A stretch of 64,000 nucleotides of DNA from Bacteroidaceae bacterium (GCA_024398535.1 JAKSIY010000001.1:805-64804); one strand, 5' to 3'; shown: positions 42,868-47,183, numbered from the stretch's first letter. Notes: generated by a model not told the origin, from the sequence alone. Program-made: numbers and translations.

Positions 42868-43530
42868 ATGGACGTCCGCATTGAACAGAGCTGGAAGGAG
42901 GTTCTTCAACCTGAGTTTGACAAGCCCTATTTCAGGAATCTGACAGATTTTGTAAGGCAGGAATACTCTACAGTGCAGGTATTCCCGCCGGCACGTCTTA
43001 TATTCAATGCGTTTGACTTGTGTCCTTTCAATAAAGTAAAGGTGGTGATCATTGGCCAGGACCCGTATCATGGTCCTGGTCAGGCTCACGGCCTGTGCTT
43101 CTCAGTCAATGACGGCATACAGTTTCCGCCGTCTCTCAAGAATATCTTCAAGGAGATTGAATCAGACCTGGGCAAGCCGGTTCCCCAGAGCGGAAATCTT
43201 ACGCGCTGGGCTCAGCAGGGGGTACTGCTCCTCAACGCTACGCTGACAGTCCGCGCCCACAATGCCGGCTCGCACCAGAAGCAAGGGTGGGAGACCTTCA
43301 CCGATGCTGTCATCAAGGAACTTGCAACCAGACGAACAGACCTGGTATTCATCCTCTGGGGCTCGTACGCCCAGAAGAAGGGCGCATTCATTGACCGCAG
43401 CCGCCATCTGGTCCTGCAGTCTGCCCATCCGTCGCCCCTCTCGGCCTACAACGGCTTCTTCGGCAACCACCACTTCAGCCTGACCAACCAGTGGCTCACA
43501 GACCACGGTCAGTCTCCCATTGACTGGTGA
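42868..43530 (+). CDS. ung: Uracil-DNA glycosylase
   Basis: 220 aa. [18 protein letters not shown] and HPSPLS motifs. Confidence 0.95.
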
Positions 43531-43558
43531 ACAAAAATGGAACATTTTGGAACATTTT

Positions 43559-43807
43559 GGGGACAGGTCATCGCCTGGCGAGGGACAGGTCCCGTTTTGG
43601 CGAGGTTGTCCGGGGCGTTTGGCCTTGTCCTGCCCCTGGTGCTTGGGATTTCTTCTTTTCCGGGTGCGAATAGTATCTCCTTGCCCCTGCGATGCCCTTT
43701 CCGCGGCTTGTCCGGGGCGTTTGGCGGGGTTTTGCCCCTGGTGCTTGGGATTTCTTCTTTTCCGGGTGCTAATAGTATCTTTTTGCACCTGCGTGACCAT
43801 TTCCCGC
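43559..43807 (-). repeat. Second, inverted copy of the mosaic repeat element (tail module plus two 102-bp units plus head)
   Basis: Its reverse complement aligns with 3684-4135. It has the same head (gcgggaaatggtcacgcaggtgc), the same 102-bp unit length and the same tail (cgccaggcgatgacctgtcccc). It starts 29 nt after the ung stop. Confidence 0.9.
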
Positions 43808-43836
43808 TCCTCGCTGCTACTATACCATCAGCTGTC

Positions 43837-44286
43837 ATGTCTGTTATTAGACTTTCTGGCGGCTTTGGCGGAGATGGTATTCTTTTCCTGAATAAAGTAT
43901 TGGATTTAAGGGAAGAAAGAACAATCGAGCCTCATAAAACATACAGAGAAACTTTCATAATACCTGTAACTGCACCTGTGTTTAGAAAAGGTGTTAACTA
44001 TTTCAAACTTTACTATCTTAGTAGGGAATTAGGTGGGAAAATGAAAGTATATAACAAATTAACAGGTAGCTTGGAGTCAGATGAGTTTCTAATTTATGTA
44101 AATTGACCTCTACCAGTTAGATGTAACCATCAACTGATAACTAATGAGTTTAGAAAATACATCCCTTACGGGTACAGAAATAATCCACAATATCTGGATG
44201 TGAATATTAATGACGTAATGCGTAAGGTATATCAAAAGTATCCACTACCAAAATATCGAACAAATGAAACAATTCTTAATCTTTAG
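43837..44286 (+). pseudogene. AT-rich hypothetical gene remnant interrupted by an in-frame TGA (44104-44106)
   Basis: A single frame reads MSVIRLSGG...DEFLIYVN*PLPVRCNHQ...ETILNL*. By eye it is clearly more AT-rich than its neighbours, with Asn/Tyr/Lys-rich composition. No recognisable family. Confidence 0.35.
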
Positions 44287-44303
44287 ATTTCGTGCGTCAG
44301 AAT

Positions 44304-44371
44304 GGGGGACAGGTCATCGCCTGGCGAGGGACAGGTCCCGAATTGTTCGAACGCCAAAGAGGGGACTGGTC
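44304..44371 (+). repeat. Solo tail module of the mosaic element plus a nearby GGGGACTGGTC variant
   Basis: gggggacaggtcatcgcctggcgagggacaggtcccg at 44304-44340. ttcgaacg and ggggactggtc follow at 44361-44371. Confidence 0.8.
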
Positions 44372-44409
44372 AAAAAAAATGCTAACTTAGCGACGGCAAA
44401 TTATTTAAT

Positions 44410-44679
44410 ATGAGAATATCTAAAGGATTCAAGATGCGTGACCTGTGCGGAGTGAACATTGTCACGCCAAGCGGTCTGGAGCAGGCCAACTTCAACAAGA
44501 TGATGACCCTGAATGAGACTGCCGCCTTCCTGTGGGAGTCAATCAAGGAGAGTGACTTCAACGAAGATACTCTGGCAGACCTGCTCTGTTCGGAGTACGA
44601 GGTCAGCCGTGAGACTGCCATGGCCGATGCCGTGAAGCTTATCAATGACTGGAGAGAAGCCGGTGTACTGGAGGACTGA
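44410..44679 (+). CDS. PqqD-family protein (RiPP recognition element-like peptide chaperone)
   Basis: 89 aa. The pattern ...LNETAAFLWE.....F....L...L..EYEVS.E.A..D...LI..W...G.L is typical of PqqD/RRE domains. Confidence 0.7.
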   Translation: MRISKGFKMRDLCGVNIVTPSGLEQANFNKMMTLNETAAFLWESIKESDFNEDTLADLLCSEYEVSRETAMADAVKLINDWREAGVLED

Positions 44680-44723
44680 CAAAAGAAAGAACAGTCACAG
44701 GAATTCATCAGGGAGGGCAAATA

Positions 44724-45251
44724 ATGAACACGGAAACTCACGACCAGACAGTCAGACCCTGCTCTCTTGAGGAAATCATTGAGAGAGAGGGGCAGATTGC
44801 GTACCCGAACGTGGGTGACAGCATGTGGCCGCTGATACGCCAGGGCAAGGACCTAGTCATTATCACCCGCAAGCCCCAGGGGCGTCTGAAACGCTATGAC
44901 GTACCTCTGTACCGTCGTGATTCGGACCGCCAGGCAAACAACGGAAAGTATGTGCTGCACAGGATTCTGCACGTGCGTAAAAATGACTACCTGATAACCG
45001 GTGACAACCGATGGAACATTGAGCGTGGAATAACCGACCGTCATATTGTAGGCGTGCTGACTGCCGTAGTCCGATGCGGTGCCGACCCAAGGGTAAGCAA
45101 CCCACGCACTGTCCGCGTAACCGACCCGTTATACCGAATATATACCCACCTGTGGTGCGACCTATTCCCACTGCGCGCCATAATCTTCTGGCTGCGTGAC
45201 CTGCCAGGCCGGGTGAAACGCTTTGGGGACAGGTCTTCGAACGTTCGATGA
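44724..45251 (+). CDS. S24/S26 family peptidase, apparently Ser/His (SipW/Sec11-like) type
   Basis: 175 aa. GDSMWPL (nucleophile Ser), VLHRIL (His where bacterial SPase I has KR) and ITGDNRWN (box E-like). The last 9 codons lie inside a GGGGACAGGTC palindrome. Confidence 0.7.
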   Translation: MNTETHDQTVRPCSLEEIIEREGQIAYPNVGDSMWPLIRQGKDLVIITRKPQGRLKRYDVPLYRRDSDRQANNGKYVLHRILHVRKNDYLITGDNRWNIERGITDRHIVGVLTAVVRCGADPRVSNPRTVRVTDPLYRIYTHLWCDLFPLRAIIFWLRDLPGRVKRFGDRSSNVR

Positions 45252-45260
45252 CCTGTCCCC
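45225..45260. repeat. 36-bp near-perfect palindrome made of inverted GGGGACAGGTC motifs around tcgaacgttcga
   Basis: ggggacaggtcttcgaacgttcgatgacctgtcccc. It contains the peptidase stop codon (45249-45251). Confidence 0.9.
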
Positions 45261-45286
45261 AAAAAAGCAAAAAAATCTCCGTTTTC

Positions 45287-45317
45287 TTTGGCAGTATTGC
45301 AAGATGCATTACATTTG
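45287..45317 (+). promoter_or_regulatory. Candidate Bacteroidetes promoter (-33 TTTG / -7 TAnnTTTG) for the toxin-antitoxin pair
   Basis: tttg at 45287-45290 and tacatttg at 45310-45317, with a 19-nt spacer. It lies 30 nt upstream of the ATG at 45347. Confidence 0.45.
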
Positions 45318-45346
45318 CACTACAAACAAAATAAAAATAATACATT

Positions 45347-45640
45347 ATGTCACAGGCTGCAATATCATTCAGAGGAGACGAATCACTCAAGCGCAGTTTC
45401 GATTCAATATGCGACCAACTTGGTCTCAGCAACAGTACTGCCTATACCCTTTTCATGAAGGCTGTGGTGAGGGAACGCCGAATTCCATTTGAAGTGAAGA
45501 TAGACTCAGACGAGGAAATCCGAAACAAGGCAATCCAGGCAGTTGCACGCATGCGAGCCACTACTGCCGAAAGCGGCGTGACGGACATGCCTCTCGATGA
45601 AATCAATGCGATAATCGAAGACGTACGAGATGGCCGCTAA
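45347..45640 (+). CDS. RelB/DinJ family type II antitoxin
   Basis: 97 aa. N-terminal ribbon-helix-helix pattern ISFRGDESLKRSFDSICDQLGLSNSTAYTLFMKAVVRERRIPFEV. Confidence 0.8.
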   Translation: MSQAAISFRGDESLKRSFDSICDQLGLSNSTAYTLFMKAVVRERRIPFEVKIDSDEEIRNKAIQAVARMRATTAESGVTDMPLDEINAIIEDVRDGR

Positions 45641-46073
45641 GTTTTACGCCGTACTGGATACCAACGTTCTGGTTTCCAGTATGTATACCGGTAATCCGTC
45701 GTCAACCCCAAGACAGATTCTTGACATGATGTTGGAAGGAACTATTACTCCCCTGGTCAACAAAGAGATTATCGACGAATATGTTGAAGTACTTTCAAGA
45801 GACAAGTTCTCATTCAAACCTGAAGACATTTCGGCTTTGATTGATGCATTCAAGGCCATTGGCATAGACCCTGGTCGTACCCCGGTGGATAATGTTAACT
45901 ATCCTGACCCCGATGATATTGTATTCTACGAGGTTGCTCTTTCCAGAAAAGGTTCATTCGTTGTGACGGGCAATACCAAGCACTTCCCCAAGGAACCGTT
46001 TGTAGTCACACCTGCAGAAATGCTTGAAATCATAAGAAACTCTCAAGACGCGATTGCTGATACGCCAAAGTAA
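45630..46073 (+). CDS. PIN-domain toxin (TIGR00305-like putative TA toxin component)
   Basis: 147 aa. AVLDTNVLVS, EIIDEYVEVLSRDKF, DPDDIVFYEVA and VVTGNTKHF motifs. 11-bp overlap with the antitoxin gene. Confidence 0.8.
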   Translation: MAAKFYAVLDTNVLVSSMYTGNPSSTPRQILDMMLEGTITPLVNKEIIDEYVEVLSRDKFSFKPEDISALIDAFKAIGIDPGRTPVDNVNYPDPDDIVFYEVALSRKGSFVVTGNTKHFPKEPFVVTPAEMLEIIRNSQDAIADTPK

Positions 46074-46099
46074 GTAACCACAACAGACGACCTCTGCGT

Positions 46100-47080
46100 A
46101 TGAACAAACTTTATAATGTTGCAGGACATGTGTTCCAGGTAGTCATGCCAAGCGGGCATGGACTGTGGAACTGCATGCAGAACTACTCTGAGTTTCAGGT
46201 CCTGCAGGGAACGCCGCTGTTTACACTTACCGTTACTGACCAGCCATATTCAGAGCCTGAAGACAAGCCCATATTTCAGGAGAACCCTGAGCGCCCAGAC
46301 ATGCCGCGCGTGACCGTTTACCGGGGGCCGCAGTGGTGGGCATTCTCAATGCGCGCCACAAGTGGCAGCCCGCAAGCGTTCCTGCTGAGAACAACCCCTG
46401 ATTTCAGCCAGGCCACGCTGAGCCTGAGACCGGGCAATGAGTTTCACGTCTTTGCCCTGAACAACAGCCTGATGCTGCTCTACACCATGAACACCACCGC
46501 GCTTGATACACTGGCCATGCATGCATCGGTCGTCATGAAGGACGACAAGGGCTACATGTTCCTGGGCACCAGCGGCACAGGCAAGAGCACACACAGCCGC
46601 ATGTGGCTGGAGAACATTCCCGGAACCGAGCTTCTGAATGACGACAACCCTGTGCTGCGCATATTGCCCGATGCCGACGGCAAGCCCATGGCAATGGTCT
46701 ATGGCTCGCCATGGAGCGGCAAGACCCCGTGCTACAAGAACAAGCAGGTGCCTGTTGGAGCAATCATCCAGATTAGAAGATGCAGTCACAACGAACTTGT
46801 CAGGCAGAACATTGTTGAGGCATACGCCGCACTGCTCATGTCATGCAGCGGGCTGAAGTTCCGCGAAGAGTCAGTTGACCAGCTCAATGCCACCCAGAGC
46901 AAGCTGCTGGCATCCGTGCCGTTCTATTTCATGGACTGCCTGCCCGATGCCGATGCCGCTAGGGTATGCTACACCGATTTGCCGATTTTGGGGCCCCCGA
47001 TGGGATTGACTATGTCCATCCCTTCCCGTTTCACGGAAAGGTCTGAACATCAAAAGCATAAAAGTCTGTCTGAAAGCTAG
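46100..47080 (+). CDS. HprK-related P-loop kinase-like protein
   Basis: 326 aa. MHASVVMKDDKGYMFLGTSGTGKST, then NDDNP, resembles the HPr kinase C-terminal (PEPCK-like) fold. The last ~30 codons run through a tRNA-end duplicate and a long palindrome, so the C-terminus is doubtful. Confidence 0.6.
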   Translation: MNKLYNVAGHVFQVVMPSGHGLWNCMQNYSEFQVLQGTPLFTLTVTDQPYSEPEDKPIFQENPERPDMPRVTVYRGPQWWAFSMRATSGSPQAFLLRTTPDFSQATLSLRPGNEFHVFALNNSLMLLYTMNTTALDTLAMHASVVMKDDKGYMFLGTSGTGKSTHSRMWLENIPGTELLNDDNPVLRILPDADGKPMAMVYGSPWSGKTPCYKNKQVPVGAIIQIRRCSHNELVRQNIVEAYAALLMSCSGLKFREESVDQLNATQSKLLASVPFYFMDCLPDADAARVCYTDLPILGPPMGLTMSIPSRFTERSEHQKHKSLSES

Positions 47081-47110
47081 CTTTCAAGCAGACTTTTATG
47101 CTTTTGATGT
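47047..47110. repeat. 64-bp near-perfect palindrome (31-nt arms) abutting the 3' end of tRNA-Arg; possible bidirectional terminator
   Basis: acatcaaaagcataaaagtctgtctgaaagc ta gctttcaagcagacttttatgcttttgatgt. Two mismatches between the arms. No flanking U-tract. Confidence 0.85.
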
Positions 47111-47183
47111 GACCCCGATGGGATTCAAACCCATGACCTTCAGAACCGGAATCTGACGCTCTATTCAGCTAAGCTACGGGGCC
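47110..47183 (-). tRNA. tRNA-Arg (anticodon CCG)
   Basis: Reverse complement GGCCCCGTAGCTTAGCTGAATAGAGCGTCAGATTCCGGTTCTGAAGGTCATGGGTTTGAATCCCATCGGGGTCA folds as a cloverleaf. Anticodon loop TTCCGGT. CCA is not encoded. Confidence 0.9.

Follow-up and report, generated by a model that had tools for sequence, protein, structure and literature searches.

A 64,000-nucleotide stretch of DNA from a Bacteroidaceae bacterium (GCA_024398535.1 JAKSIY010000001.1:805-64804; the window, in whose numbering positions are given) carries at 44410-47080 a cassette of three genes, for a PqqD-family protein, an S26-type Ser/His peptidase and an HprK-like kinase. Our analysis indicates that these are probably the recognition element (B), the leader peptidase (S) and the kinase (K) of a pathway of the linear polyphosphorylated peptide (LPP) type, i.e., one producing peptides that are made on ribosomes and modified after their translation (RiPPs), and that they belong to a Bacteroidales branch of it. 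The three proteins probably still work on a precursor, and with an exporter, encoded elsewhere in the genome, or did so until very recently, because the open reading frames (ORFs) are intact, all catalytic residues are in place and the differences from sister copies are mostly synonymous. The window copy itself is incomplete and remodeled. Systems of the LPP kind have been known since 2026; what is new is a divergent, very widespread branch in Bacteroidales and Fibrobacter.

The LPP family was described by Popov et al. (Nat Commun 2026; PMC13381572) from the Paenibacillus alginolyticus DSM5050 cluster lppA-K-B-S-D-N; the point of departure was the occurrence of a SipW-like signal peptidase in RiPP clusters of Bacillota. 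Its core consists of the precursor LppA, the kinase LppK, the RiPP recognition element (RRE) LppB, the SipW-like peptidase LppS, the MsbA-like exporter LppD and the uncharacterized NTP-transferase LppN, and the precursors carry a YxxP leader. Upon heterologous expression, LppK adds up to four phosphates at Ser3 of the core; LppS removes the leader, but only with LppB present, and the substitutions S29A, H68A and D93A abolish cleavage. In Bacilli these clusters are embedded in capsule loci. The supplementary table of the same paper holds a few pairs of signal peptidase I (SpI) and RRE from outside Bacillota, in minor clusters, and a peptidase fused to an ATP-binding cassette (ABC) protein in Paludibacter. 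A leader-cleaved, phosphorylated linear peptide, which the original prediction for this DNA had proposed as the product, is thus the product type shown for the homologous LPP pathway (PMC13381572).

Proteins of the cassette

All three ORFs lie on the plus strand where the original prediction had placed them (Table 1). The 89-aa protein had been assigned as a PqqD-type leader-binding domain, and it matches PF05402 with E=4.2e-16 and 59.5 bits, above the curated cut-off of 23.4. It is 35% identical (E=2e-19) to a Dehalobacter RRE adjoining an SpI-type peptidase, a pair that falls in a minor cluster of the LPP dataset (PMC13381572), and 24% identical (E=1e-3) to LppB. Among solved structures, sequence comparison puts two lasso-peptide B1 proteins, TfuB1 (6jx3, E=0.009) and TbiB1, closest to it. 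An exact database look-up returned no identical record for it.

The second protein had been called a small S24/S26 peptidase with GDSM, HR and GDN boxes, and these boxes are present as G31-D32-S33-M34, H79-R80 and G93-D94-N95. In an alignment of 43 homologues, S33, H79, R80, G93, D94 and E100 are invariant. The best match among curated models is weak: with TIGR02228 (archaeal signal peptidase I) it reaches E=5.7e-5, which does not pass the cut-off. The AlphaFold model (predicted local distance difference test score, pLDDT, 90.2), however, matches exclusively S24/S26 structures (SipA, SpsB, LexA, and SEC11A/C from human), with a root-mean-square deviation of about 3 A. A profile of the peptidase family aligned to LppS by hhalign gives a probability of 97.8% (E=1.2e-12), with S33, H79 and E100 aligned to the experimentally essential S29, H68 and D93 of LppS. 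The model shows a C-terminal helical hairpin and no SipW-like N-terminal membrane anchor. The enzyme is predicted to act inside the cytoplasm and to remove the leader of a RiPP there.

The third protein had been read as an HprK-like P-loop protein. By sequence, its matches to ScmC, HprK-related kinases A and B and PEPCK are weak and sub-threshold; its homologues carry the Pfam family PF27840 ('ScmC'). Its AlphaFold model (pLDDT 90.6) matches structures of PEPCK and HPr kinase/phosphatase at probability 1.0, which places it in the HprK/PEPCK fold. The P-loop reads G-T-S-G-T-G-K-S, and 64 homologues all keep H141, K162 (Walker A), D181 and D182. These four residues correspond to the His-Lys-Asp-Asp motif that is reported to be essential in lasso-peptide kinases (PMC9266682). 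In the LPP family the class is defined by the modification that the kinase makes; the cassette is therefore not purely accessory, and the earlier description of it as accessory parts alone must be given up.

The termini of the peptidase and kinase ORFs had been noticed to run into repeats, and both ends prove to be foreign. The final 8 codons of the peptidase gene are repeat sequence that runs into the 42-nt palindrome at 45222-45263. The homologous core of the kinase spans about residues 1-295 (46100-46987); the ~31 codons after it, non-homologous and disordered, are read-through, the frame running through a tRNA-like fragment and on into a 64-nt palindrome.

The peptidase is 60-67% identical to Ruminococcus proteins annotated as 'S24/S26 family peptidase' (P0201/P0203, L086), and only about 22% identical to the usual peptidase of Bacteroidales cassettes. 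Compared with the Ruminococcus counterparts, the kinase is 36% identical, and for the PqqD protein similarity is undetectable. This contrast marks the cassette as a mosaic and points to a passage of the peptidase gene from one phylum to another.

Related loci and candidate precursors

Kinase homologues are abundant: 7993 of 8000 scored candidates were significant, and a scan of one genome per species yielded at least 598 loci. The best 80 of these were kept with 10-kb flanks and, together with two further loci, make up a set of 82, nearly all from Bacteroidales of the gut or rumen, with Fibrobacter in addition. About 70 of the 82 contain K, S and B together, so the trio does travel as a unit across genomes, and further linkage is seen in fusion proteins that join the kinase to an S24-like peptidase (P0117 and P0070, ~420-432 aa) or PqqD to the peptidase (P0134, 248 aa). 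An additional protein, P0012 (555 aa), is a tandem double kinase. An exporter is found in 52 of the 82 loci and an NTP_transf_5 protein in about 20. By tblastn, with the window included, the order kinase, peptidase, PqqD, ABC exporter (K-S-B-D) accounts for 45 of 83 loci; the same order without exporter occurs in 15, peptidase, PqqD, kinase in 7, and a few loci show other permutations. The order in the window (PqqD, peptidase, kinase) is seen in no other of the 82.

In about 17 of the 82 loci, ORFs of 38-56 aa with a YxxP leader are found no more than 10 kb from the cassette; as a rule they immediately precede the kinase gene or immediately follow the final gene of the cassette. Their leader consensus is K-x-Y-x-x-P-x-(A/L/I/M)-x-V-(I/V)-E, with Y and P invariant; there follow about a dozen semi-conserved residues, often ending in A/G-S, and then a hypervariable acidic or Gly-rich tail. 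The motif agrees with the RRE-binding rule [Y/W]xxPx[L/V/I/F/A] (PMC13381572). Of the loci with NTP_transf_5, 12 of 20 have such an ORF, as against 5 of 62 among the others. Searched with a profile of these peptides, the protein database yielded 188 clusters of YxxP peptides of 37-56 aa, all unnamed, and neither Pfam nor NCBIfam has a model that matches them. Four members, picked solely for their location on long contigs, all proved to have ScmC, an S24-like peptidase and PqqD as neighbors, NTP_transf_5 and ABC being optional.

Candidates of other kinds did not hold up. Clustering of small flanking ORFs beside K-S-B-D operons gave only antisense shadows of neighboring genes, and a relaxed [YW]xxP scan selected 50 of 506 ORFs, of which all but those already known look random. 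Among the first 25 of 71 families, which are those listed for the 57 flanking proteins of precursor-bearing loci, NTP_transf_5 is the sole repeated Pfam family, and none is a cyclase, a transglutaminase-like protease or a radical S-adenosylmethionine (SAM) enzyme.

Several gene arrangements recur around the candidate precursors. A protein of 329-346 aa with no Pfam match is encoded directly after the YxxP peptide gene in L014 (13087-14103), L089 (7215-8204), L091 (7192-8232) and L094 (7188-8222); the L014 protein resembles a lipoprotein, and genes for a FadL-like outer-membrane protein and a tetratricopeptide repeat (TPR) protein often come next. An alternative layout has two proteins of ~530 aa, without significant family match, each preceding a peptide gene (L071, 6092-7678 and 8184-9641; L093, 3215-4834 and 5379-6980). 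In Ruminococcus, one operon (L086, 5794-11131) encodes PqqD, NTP_transf_5, ScmC, peptidase and ABC. This Firmicutes cassette adjoins a polysaccharide-synthesis cluster, a neighborhood that echoes the capsule-locus association of the Bacilli LPP clusters, and the gene immediately before it encodes a 131-aa Thr/Ala-rich lipoprotein.

Such contexts could be taken to mean that the module is not a RiPP system at all, but one for the processing and secretion of a protein or lipoprotein, or one linked to polysaccharides. The S26 enzyme would then be a specialized signal peptidase, as SipW is for TasA, and the P-loop protein a regulator or a sugar or lipid kinase. Both the Ruminococcus cassette, with its polysaccharide-synthesis genes and preceding lipoprotein gene, and the capsule loci of Bacilli would fit this proposal, as would the lipoprotein-like 329-346 aa genes and the FadL-like and TPR proteins near some Bacteroidales loci, and the fact that most loci lack an adjacent short precursor. 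We nevertheless consider it improbable. Recognition of a peptide leader is what a discrete PqqD RRE typically stands for, and all four contexts retrieved independently have a YxxP peptide next to the cassette. Moreover, the peptidase model lacks the N-terminal membrane anchor of SipW, and in experiments on the homologous LPP system a peptide was phosphorylated and its leader cleaved in dependence on the RRE.

History of the window copy

The window was compared with three short, near-identical contigs from other samples, L083, L084 and L085. In L084 (97% identical) the peptidase gene overlaps the start of the kinase gene, and the RelB and PIN genes that separate the two in the window are missing. 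Homology to L084 stops at 45225 on the left. Since L084 has no toxin-antitoxin (TA) genes between S and K, the segment 45226-46095 of the window (palindrome, RelB and PIN; ~870 bp) is an insertion, which replaced ~25 bp between the peptidase and kinase genes. The RelB/PIN pair and the palindromic repeat arrived as one unit. The C-terminus of the L084 peptidase diverges from that of the window after ...GRVKRF. The kinase start codon now lies 26 bp after the PIN stop codon, a proximity that may make the kinase gene part of the TA operon's transcript.

On the right, homology to L084 resumes and ends at 46987, the very point at which a degenerate tRNA 3' part sets in, 100 bp from the real tRNA-Arg; the 64-nt palindrome takes up the gap between the two. 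The right edge therefore looks like the scar left by an element that integrated into the tRNA gene or was excised from it. In L085 (98% identical), ung lies ~50 bp from the PqqD start, from which it follows that the stretch 43533-44380 is likewise an insertion. The PqqD gene of L085 has an internal deletion of ~157 bp; its peptidase gene is intact and its kinase gene has been cleanly deleted.

Two comparisons bear on function and movement. The kinase differs from that of L084 by 23 synonymous and 4 non-synonymous codons, and the peptidase from that of L085 by 11 synonymous and 1 non-synonymous; this synonymous excess speaks for genes that were functional until recently. In the window and L085, the DNA of ung (43036-43530) is only 82% identical and that of the cassette (44593-45222) 98%, which suggests that the cassette moved or recombined, recently, between diverged hosts. 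The original prediction had left a choice between a remodeled or decaying system and a compact undescribed one. Remodeling is borne out by the insertions and replaced ends; undescribed it is not, the LPP family having been published in 2026.

Completeness and function

A number of observations weigh against the reading as an LPP-type pathway that is, or until recently was, at work in this organism. First, components A, D and N were not found in the window. Three cassette exporters used as tblastn queries detected no ABC exporter in the 64 kb, and there was no tblastn match to NTP_transf_5. A profile built from 19-21 cassette-linked peptides gave only noise over the 64 kb (best E=32). Activity can thus not be argued from the locus alone. 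Second, about 60 of the 82 related loci have no recognizable precursor within 10 kb, so either precursors are commonly unlinked or the precursor model misses most of them. Third, L085 has lost K and part of B, so the module is dispensable. Fourth, the resemblance to LPP proteins is distant: identity is low (24% for the RRE), the peptidase is detectable by profile only, and the LppK-likeness of the kinase was judged by its fold, its invariant residues and the PF27840 assignment of its homologues. Finally, LPPs have been stated to be restricted to Bacillota (PMC13381572), and the Bacteroidales members are known from sequence alone.

Other searches of the window gave the same picture. The published LPP motif and tblastn with LppA found nothing in the 64 kb, and the regular expression [YW]xxPx[LVIFA] matched once, antisense within ung. 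The 49-aa ORF at 44264-44413 and the 189-aa ORF at 43537-44106 were rejected as precursors, both being repeat-derived and missing in L085; the latter has no Pfam or curated-family match. The Pfam scan covered part of the ORFs of the 64 kb, including the genes within ~8 kb on each side of the cassette, and revealed neither a lasso cyclase nor a B2 protease within that distance. No radical-SAM gene was seen in this neighborhood or among the families listed for related loci. The earlier statement that no precursor, lasso cyclase, radical-SAM enzyme or transporter is visible therefore stands after profile, motif, tblastn and neighbor scans, and its alternative, that the trio acts on a precursor encoded elsewhere, is compatible with the data. 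An unlinked precursor seems to be common in the Bacteroidales branch.

The same gaps could mean that the window holds a non-functional relic of an LPP-type module, whose precursor and exporter were lost, whose B, S and K genes are heading for deletion, and whose dispensable islet is being colonized by the TA genes and repeats. This is possible, if doubtful. In its favor are the failure to find A, D and N in the 64 kb, the insertion of TA genes and repeats that breaks the operon, the replaced C-terminal ends of S and K, the recombination scars at both ends of the islet, and the two deletions at the same locus in L085 (~157 bp of B, and K completely). However, the three ORFs are full length with every conserved and catalytic residue intact, and ratios of 23:4 and 11:1 in favor of synonymous changes are not expected of pseudogenes. 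The junction between PIN and kinase genes also recurs in a second sample, L083, and, since most Bacteroidales loci have no precursor gene beside the cassette, its absence here is no sign of decay. We therefore prefer the reading in which B, S and K are, or until very recently were, working components of an LPP-type pathway.

Genetic setting

The coordinates of the cassette and of the surrounding features are listed in Table 1. The original prediction had placed the cassette in a repeat-rich islet next to a tRNA and had it split by a TA module, and the RelB/PIN pair, the GGGGACAGGTC repeats and the tRNA-Arg confirm this.

Table 1. Features of the cassette and its islet, in window coordinates
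Feature	Position	Strand	Basis
PqqD-family RRE (LppB / lasso-B1-like), 89 aa, full length	44410..44679	+	PF05402
SipW/Sec11-type (S26B-like) Ser/His peptidase, LppS-like, 175 aa	44724..45251	+	LppS profile match, predicted fold
HprK-like peptide kinase (Pfam ScmC family; LppK-like), 326 aa	46100..47080	+	Fold, invariant residues
RelB/DinJ-family antitoxin, in inserted segment	45347..45640	+	PF04221 2.4e-14; TIGR02384 4.4e-17
PIN-domain toxin, in inserted segment	45630..46073	+	PF13470 1.3e-20
42-nt near-perfect palindrome, GGGGACAGGTC repeat family, left edge of insertion	45222..45263	.	Inverted repeat, 95% complementary
Degenerate tRNA 3'-part copy, ~25 nt, att-like scar	46988..47012	-	Alignment to tRNA-Arg 3' end
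64-nt palindrome between kinase ORF and tRNA-Arg	47047..47110	.	Inverted repeat, 94% complementary, no spacer
tRNA-Arg (CCG)	47109..47183	-	ARAGORN; Rfam tRNA 61.5 bits
Repeat-rich non-conserved stretch 5' of PqqD gene, outside cassette	43533..44380	.	Repeats; missing in L085

The PqqD gene ends 44 bp before the start of the peptidase gene. The RelB and PIN genes overlap by 11 bp, which fits the layout of a type II TA system. Of the nine copies of GGGGACAGGTC in the window, seven fall within 43559-45260, where about one would be expected by chance; the repeat family may be of the miniature inverted-repeat transposable element (MITE) or repetitive extragenic palindromic (REP) kind. The stretch 43533-44380 also contains a tandem duplication of 102 bp (43606-43804). 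The 64-nt palindrome at 47047-47110 is likely a bidirectional terminator. An Rfam scan of the islet gave only the tRNA above threshold; matches of the palindrome to miRNA hairpin models were sub-threshold.

Within ~8 kb on each side the neighbors are mainly housekeeping genes (LacZ, HD, LptD, AsnA and UDG; LysS, GpsA, PGI and HAD), and an AraC-family regulator is encoded just downstream. A 199-aa protein within the same distance has no significant Pfam match. An anti-phage defense system was considered and rejected, as PADLOC gave no match for any of six proteins.

Proposed pathway and implications

By homology with the LPP system, the HprK-like kinase would phosphorylate a serine of the precursor core, with one or more phosphates. 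The RRE would present the junction of leader and core to the SipW-like Ser/His peptidase, which would remove the leader, and an MsbA-like ABC pump would export the linear phosphopeptide. Going by the literature on this distant homologue, phosphorylation would be guided by the RRE and would precede RRE-dependent leader cleavage and export. The three proteins of the window are inferred, by analogy, to perform their LPP steps on a precursor encoded elsewhere.

The LPP family was reported in 2026 as restricted to Bacillota. An operon of kinase, RRE and SipW-like peptidase, usually with a pump and sometimes with an NTP transferase, is very common in gut and rumen Bacteroidales and in Fibrobacter, and this widens the family to the dominant Gram-negative phylum of the gut. 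The 188 clusters of candidate precursors, for which there is no curated model, provide testable substrates. The window can be seen as a natural dissection, in which three enzymes under purifying selection occur without a linked precursor or exporter, and it bears on the question of action in trans.

We tentatively go one step further. LPP-type pathways may extend beyond Bacillota as a divergent branch that is among the commonest RRE cassettes of gut and rumen Bacteroidales and of Fibrobacter (at least 598 species-representative genomes), with its own leader motif, extra outer-membrane partners and precursors that are usually unlinked. The B-S-K trio of the window would then be no relic, but a TA-stabilized set working in trans.

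Comparison with known systems

The kinase resembles HprK/P in its P-loop/PEPCK-like fold and in having the H, K and DD residues of catalysis. It differs in that it has no match to the equivalog model, has another N-terminal domain, and lies in no HPr or carbon-catabolite context. The best curated matches of the 326-aa protein are SynChlorMet ScmC (TIGR04249 / PF27840) and HprK-related kinases A and B (TIGR04352, TIGR04355). TIGRFAMs describes these as uncharacterized P-loop proteins that travel with PqqD homologues. The matches are, however, far below the cut-offs (23 bits vs 125, and 21 vs 200). Membership in SynChlorMet or HPr-rel-A was rejected, TIGR04249 scoring 23.1 bits against a cut-off of 125 and the two radical-SAM/SPASM partners being absent from the window neighborhood and from the families listed for related loci. 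Literature searches on ScmC/SynChlorMet, PF14907 and PF27840, and a Bacteroidales RiPP-mining paper (PMC10352776), yielded nothing on this cassette.

The peptidase has the Ser/His chemistry and the GxSM, HR and GDN boxes of the endoplasmic reticulum (ER) and archaeal signal peptidases (B. subtilis SipW, SEC11A/C; MEROPS S26B), and both its sequence matches and its fold matches lead to SEC11A/C and to bacterial signal peptidases. Unlike SipW and SEC11, it is small and soluble-looking, has a C-terminal helical hairpin, and is encoded beside an RRE.

The paeninodin and pseudomycoidin lasso clusters (PadeK/PsmK, B1, PsmN, ABC pump) have in common with the cassette and its relatives a B1-type RRE, an HprK-family precursor kinase with His-Lys-Asp-Asp, an NTP transferase and an ABC exporter. 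The cassette could accordingly be a set of tailoring or accessory genes of this type, with cyclase, B2 and precursor elsewhere; the lasso B1 proteins are the closest solved relatives of the PqqD protein, and paeninodin-like clusters come with a kinase of HprK type, an NTP transferase and an ABC pump. We regard this as highly improbable, because neither an Asn-synthase-like cyclase nor a transglutaminase-like B2 was found among the families listed for the related loci or among their individually scanned neighbors and annotated contexts, and because an S26-type peptidase takes the place of B2, as in LPP clusters. A lasso cluster was likewise rejected for the window neighborhood. With an S26-type peptidase and without a macrolactam synthetase or B2, the product would stay linear.

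The closest comparison is with the LPP clusters. The window differs from them in having only B, S and K, and in its host, a Bacteroidales-type organism where the published LPPs come from Bacillota. The leader motif is also distinct (YxxPxVLxHQxIxFET in LPPs, YxxPx(A/L)xV(I/V)E in Bacteroidales), and the LPP core lacks the additional Bacteroidales partners, namely the 329-346 aa protein, the FadL-like outer-membrane protein and the TPR protein. Common to both are a discrete PqqD RRE, a SipW-like Ser/His peptidase and an HprK-like kinase, all three present in the window; the related loci of Bacteroidales add to these an MsbA-like pump, NTP_transf_5 and a short precursor whose leader contains YxxP.

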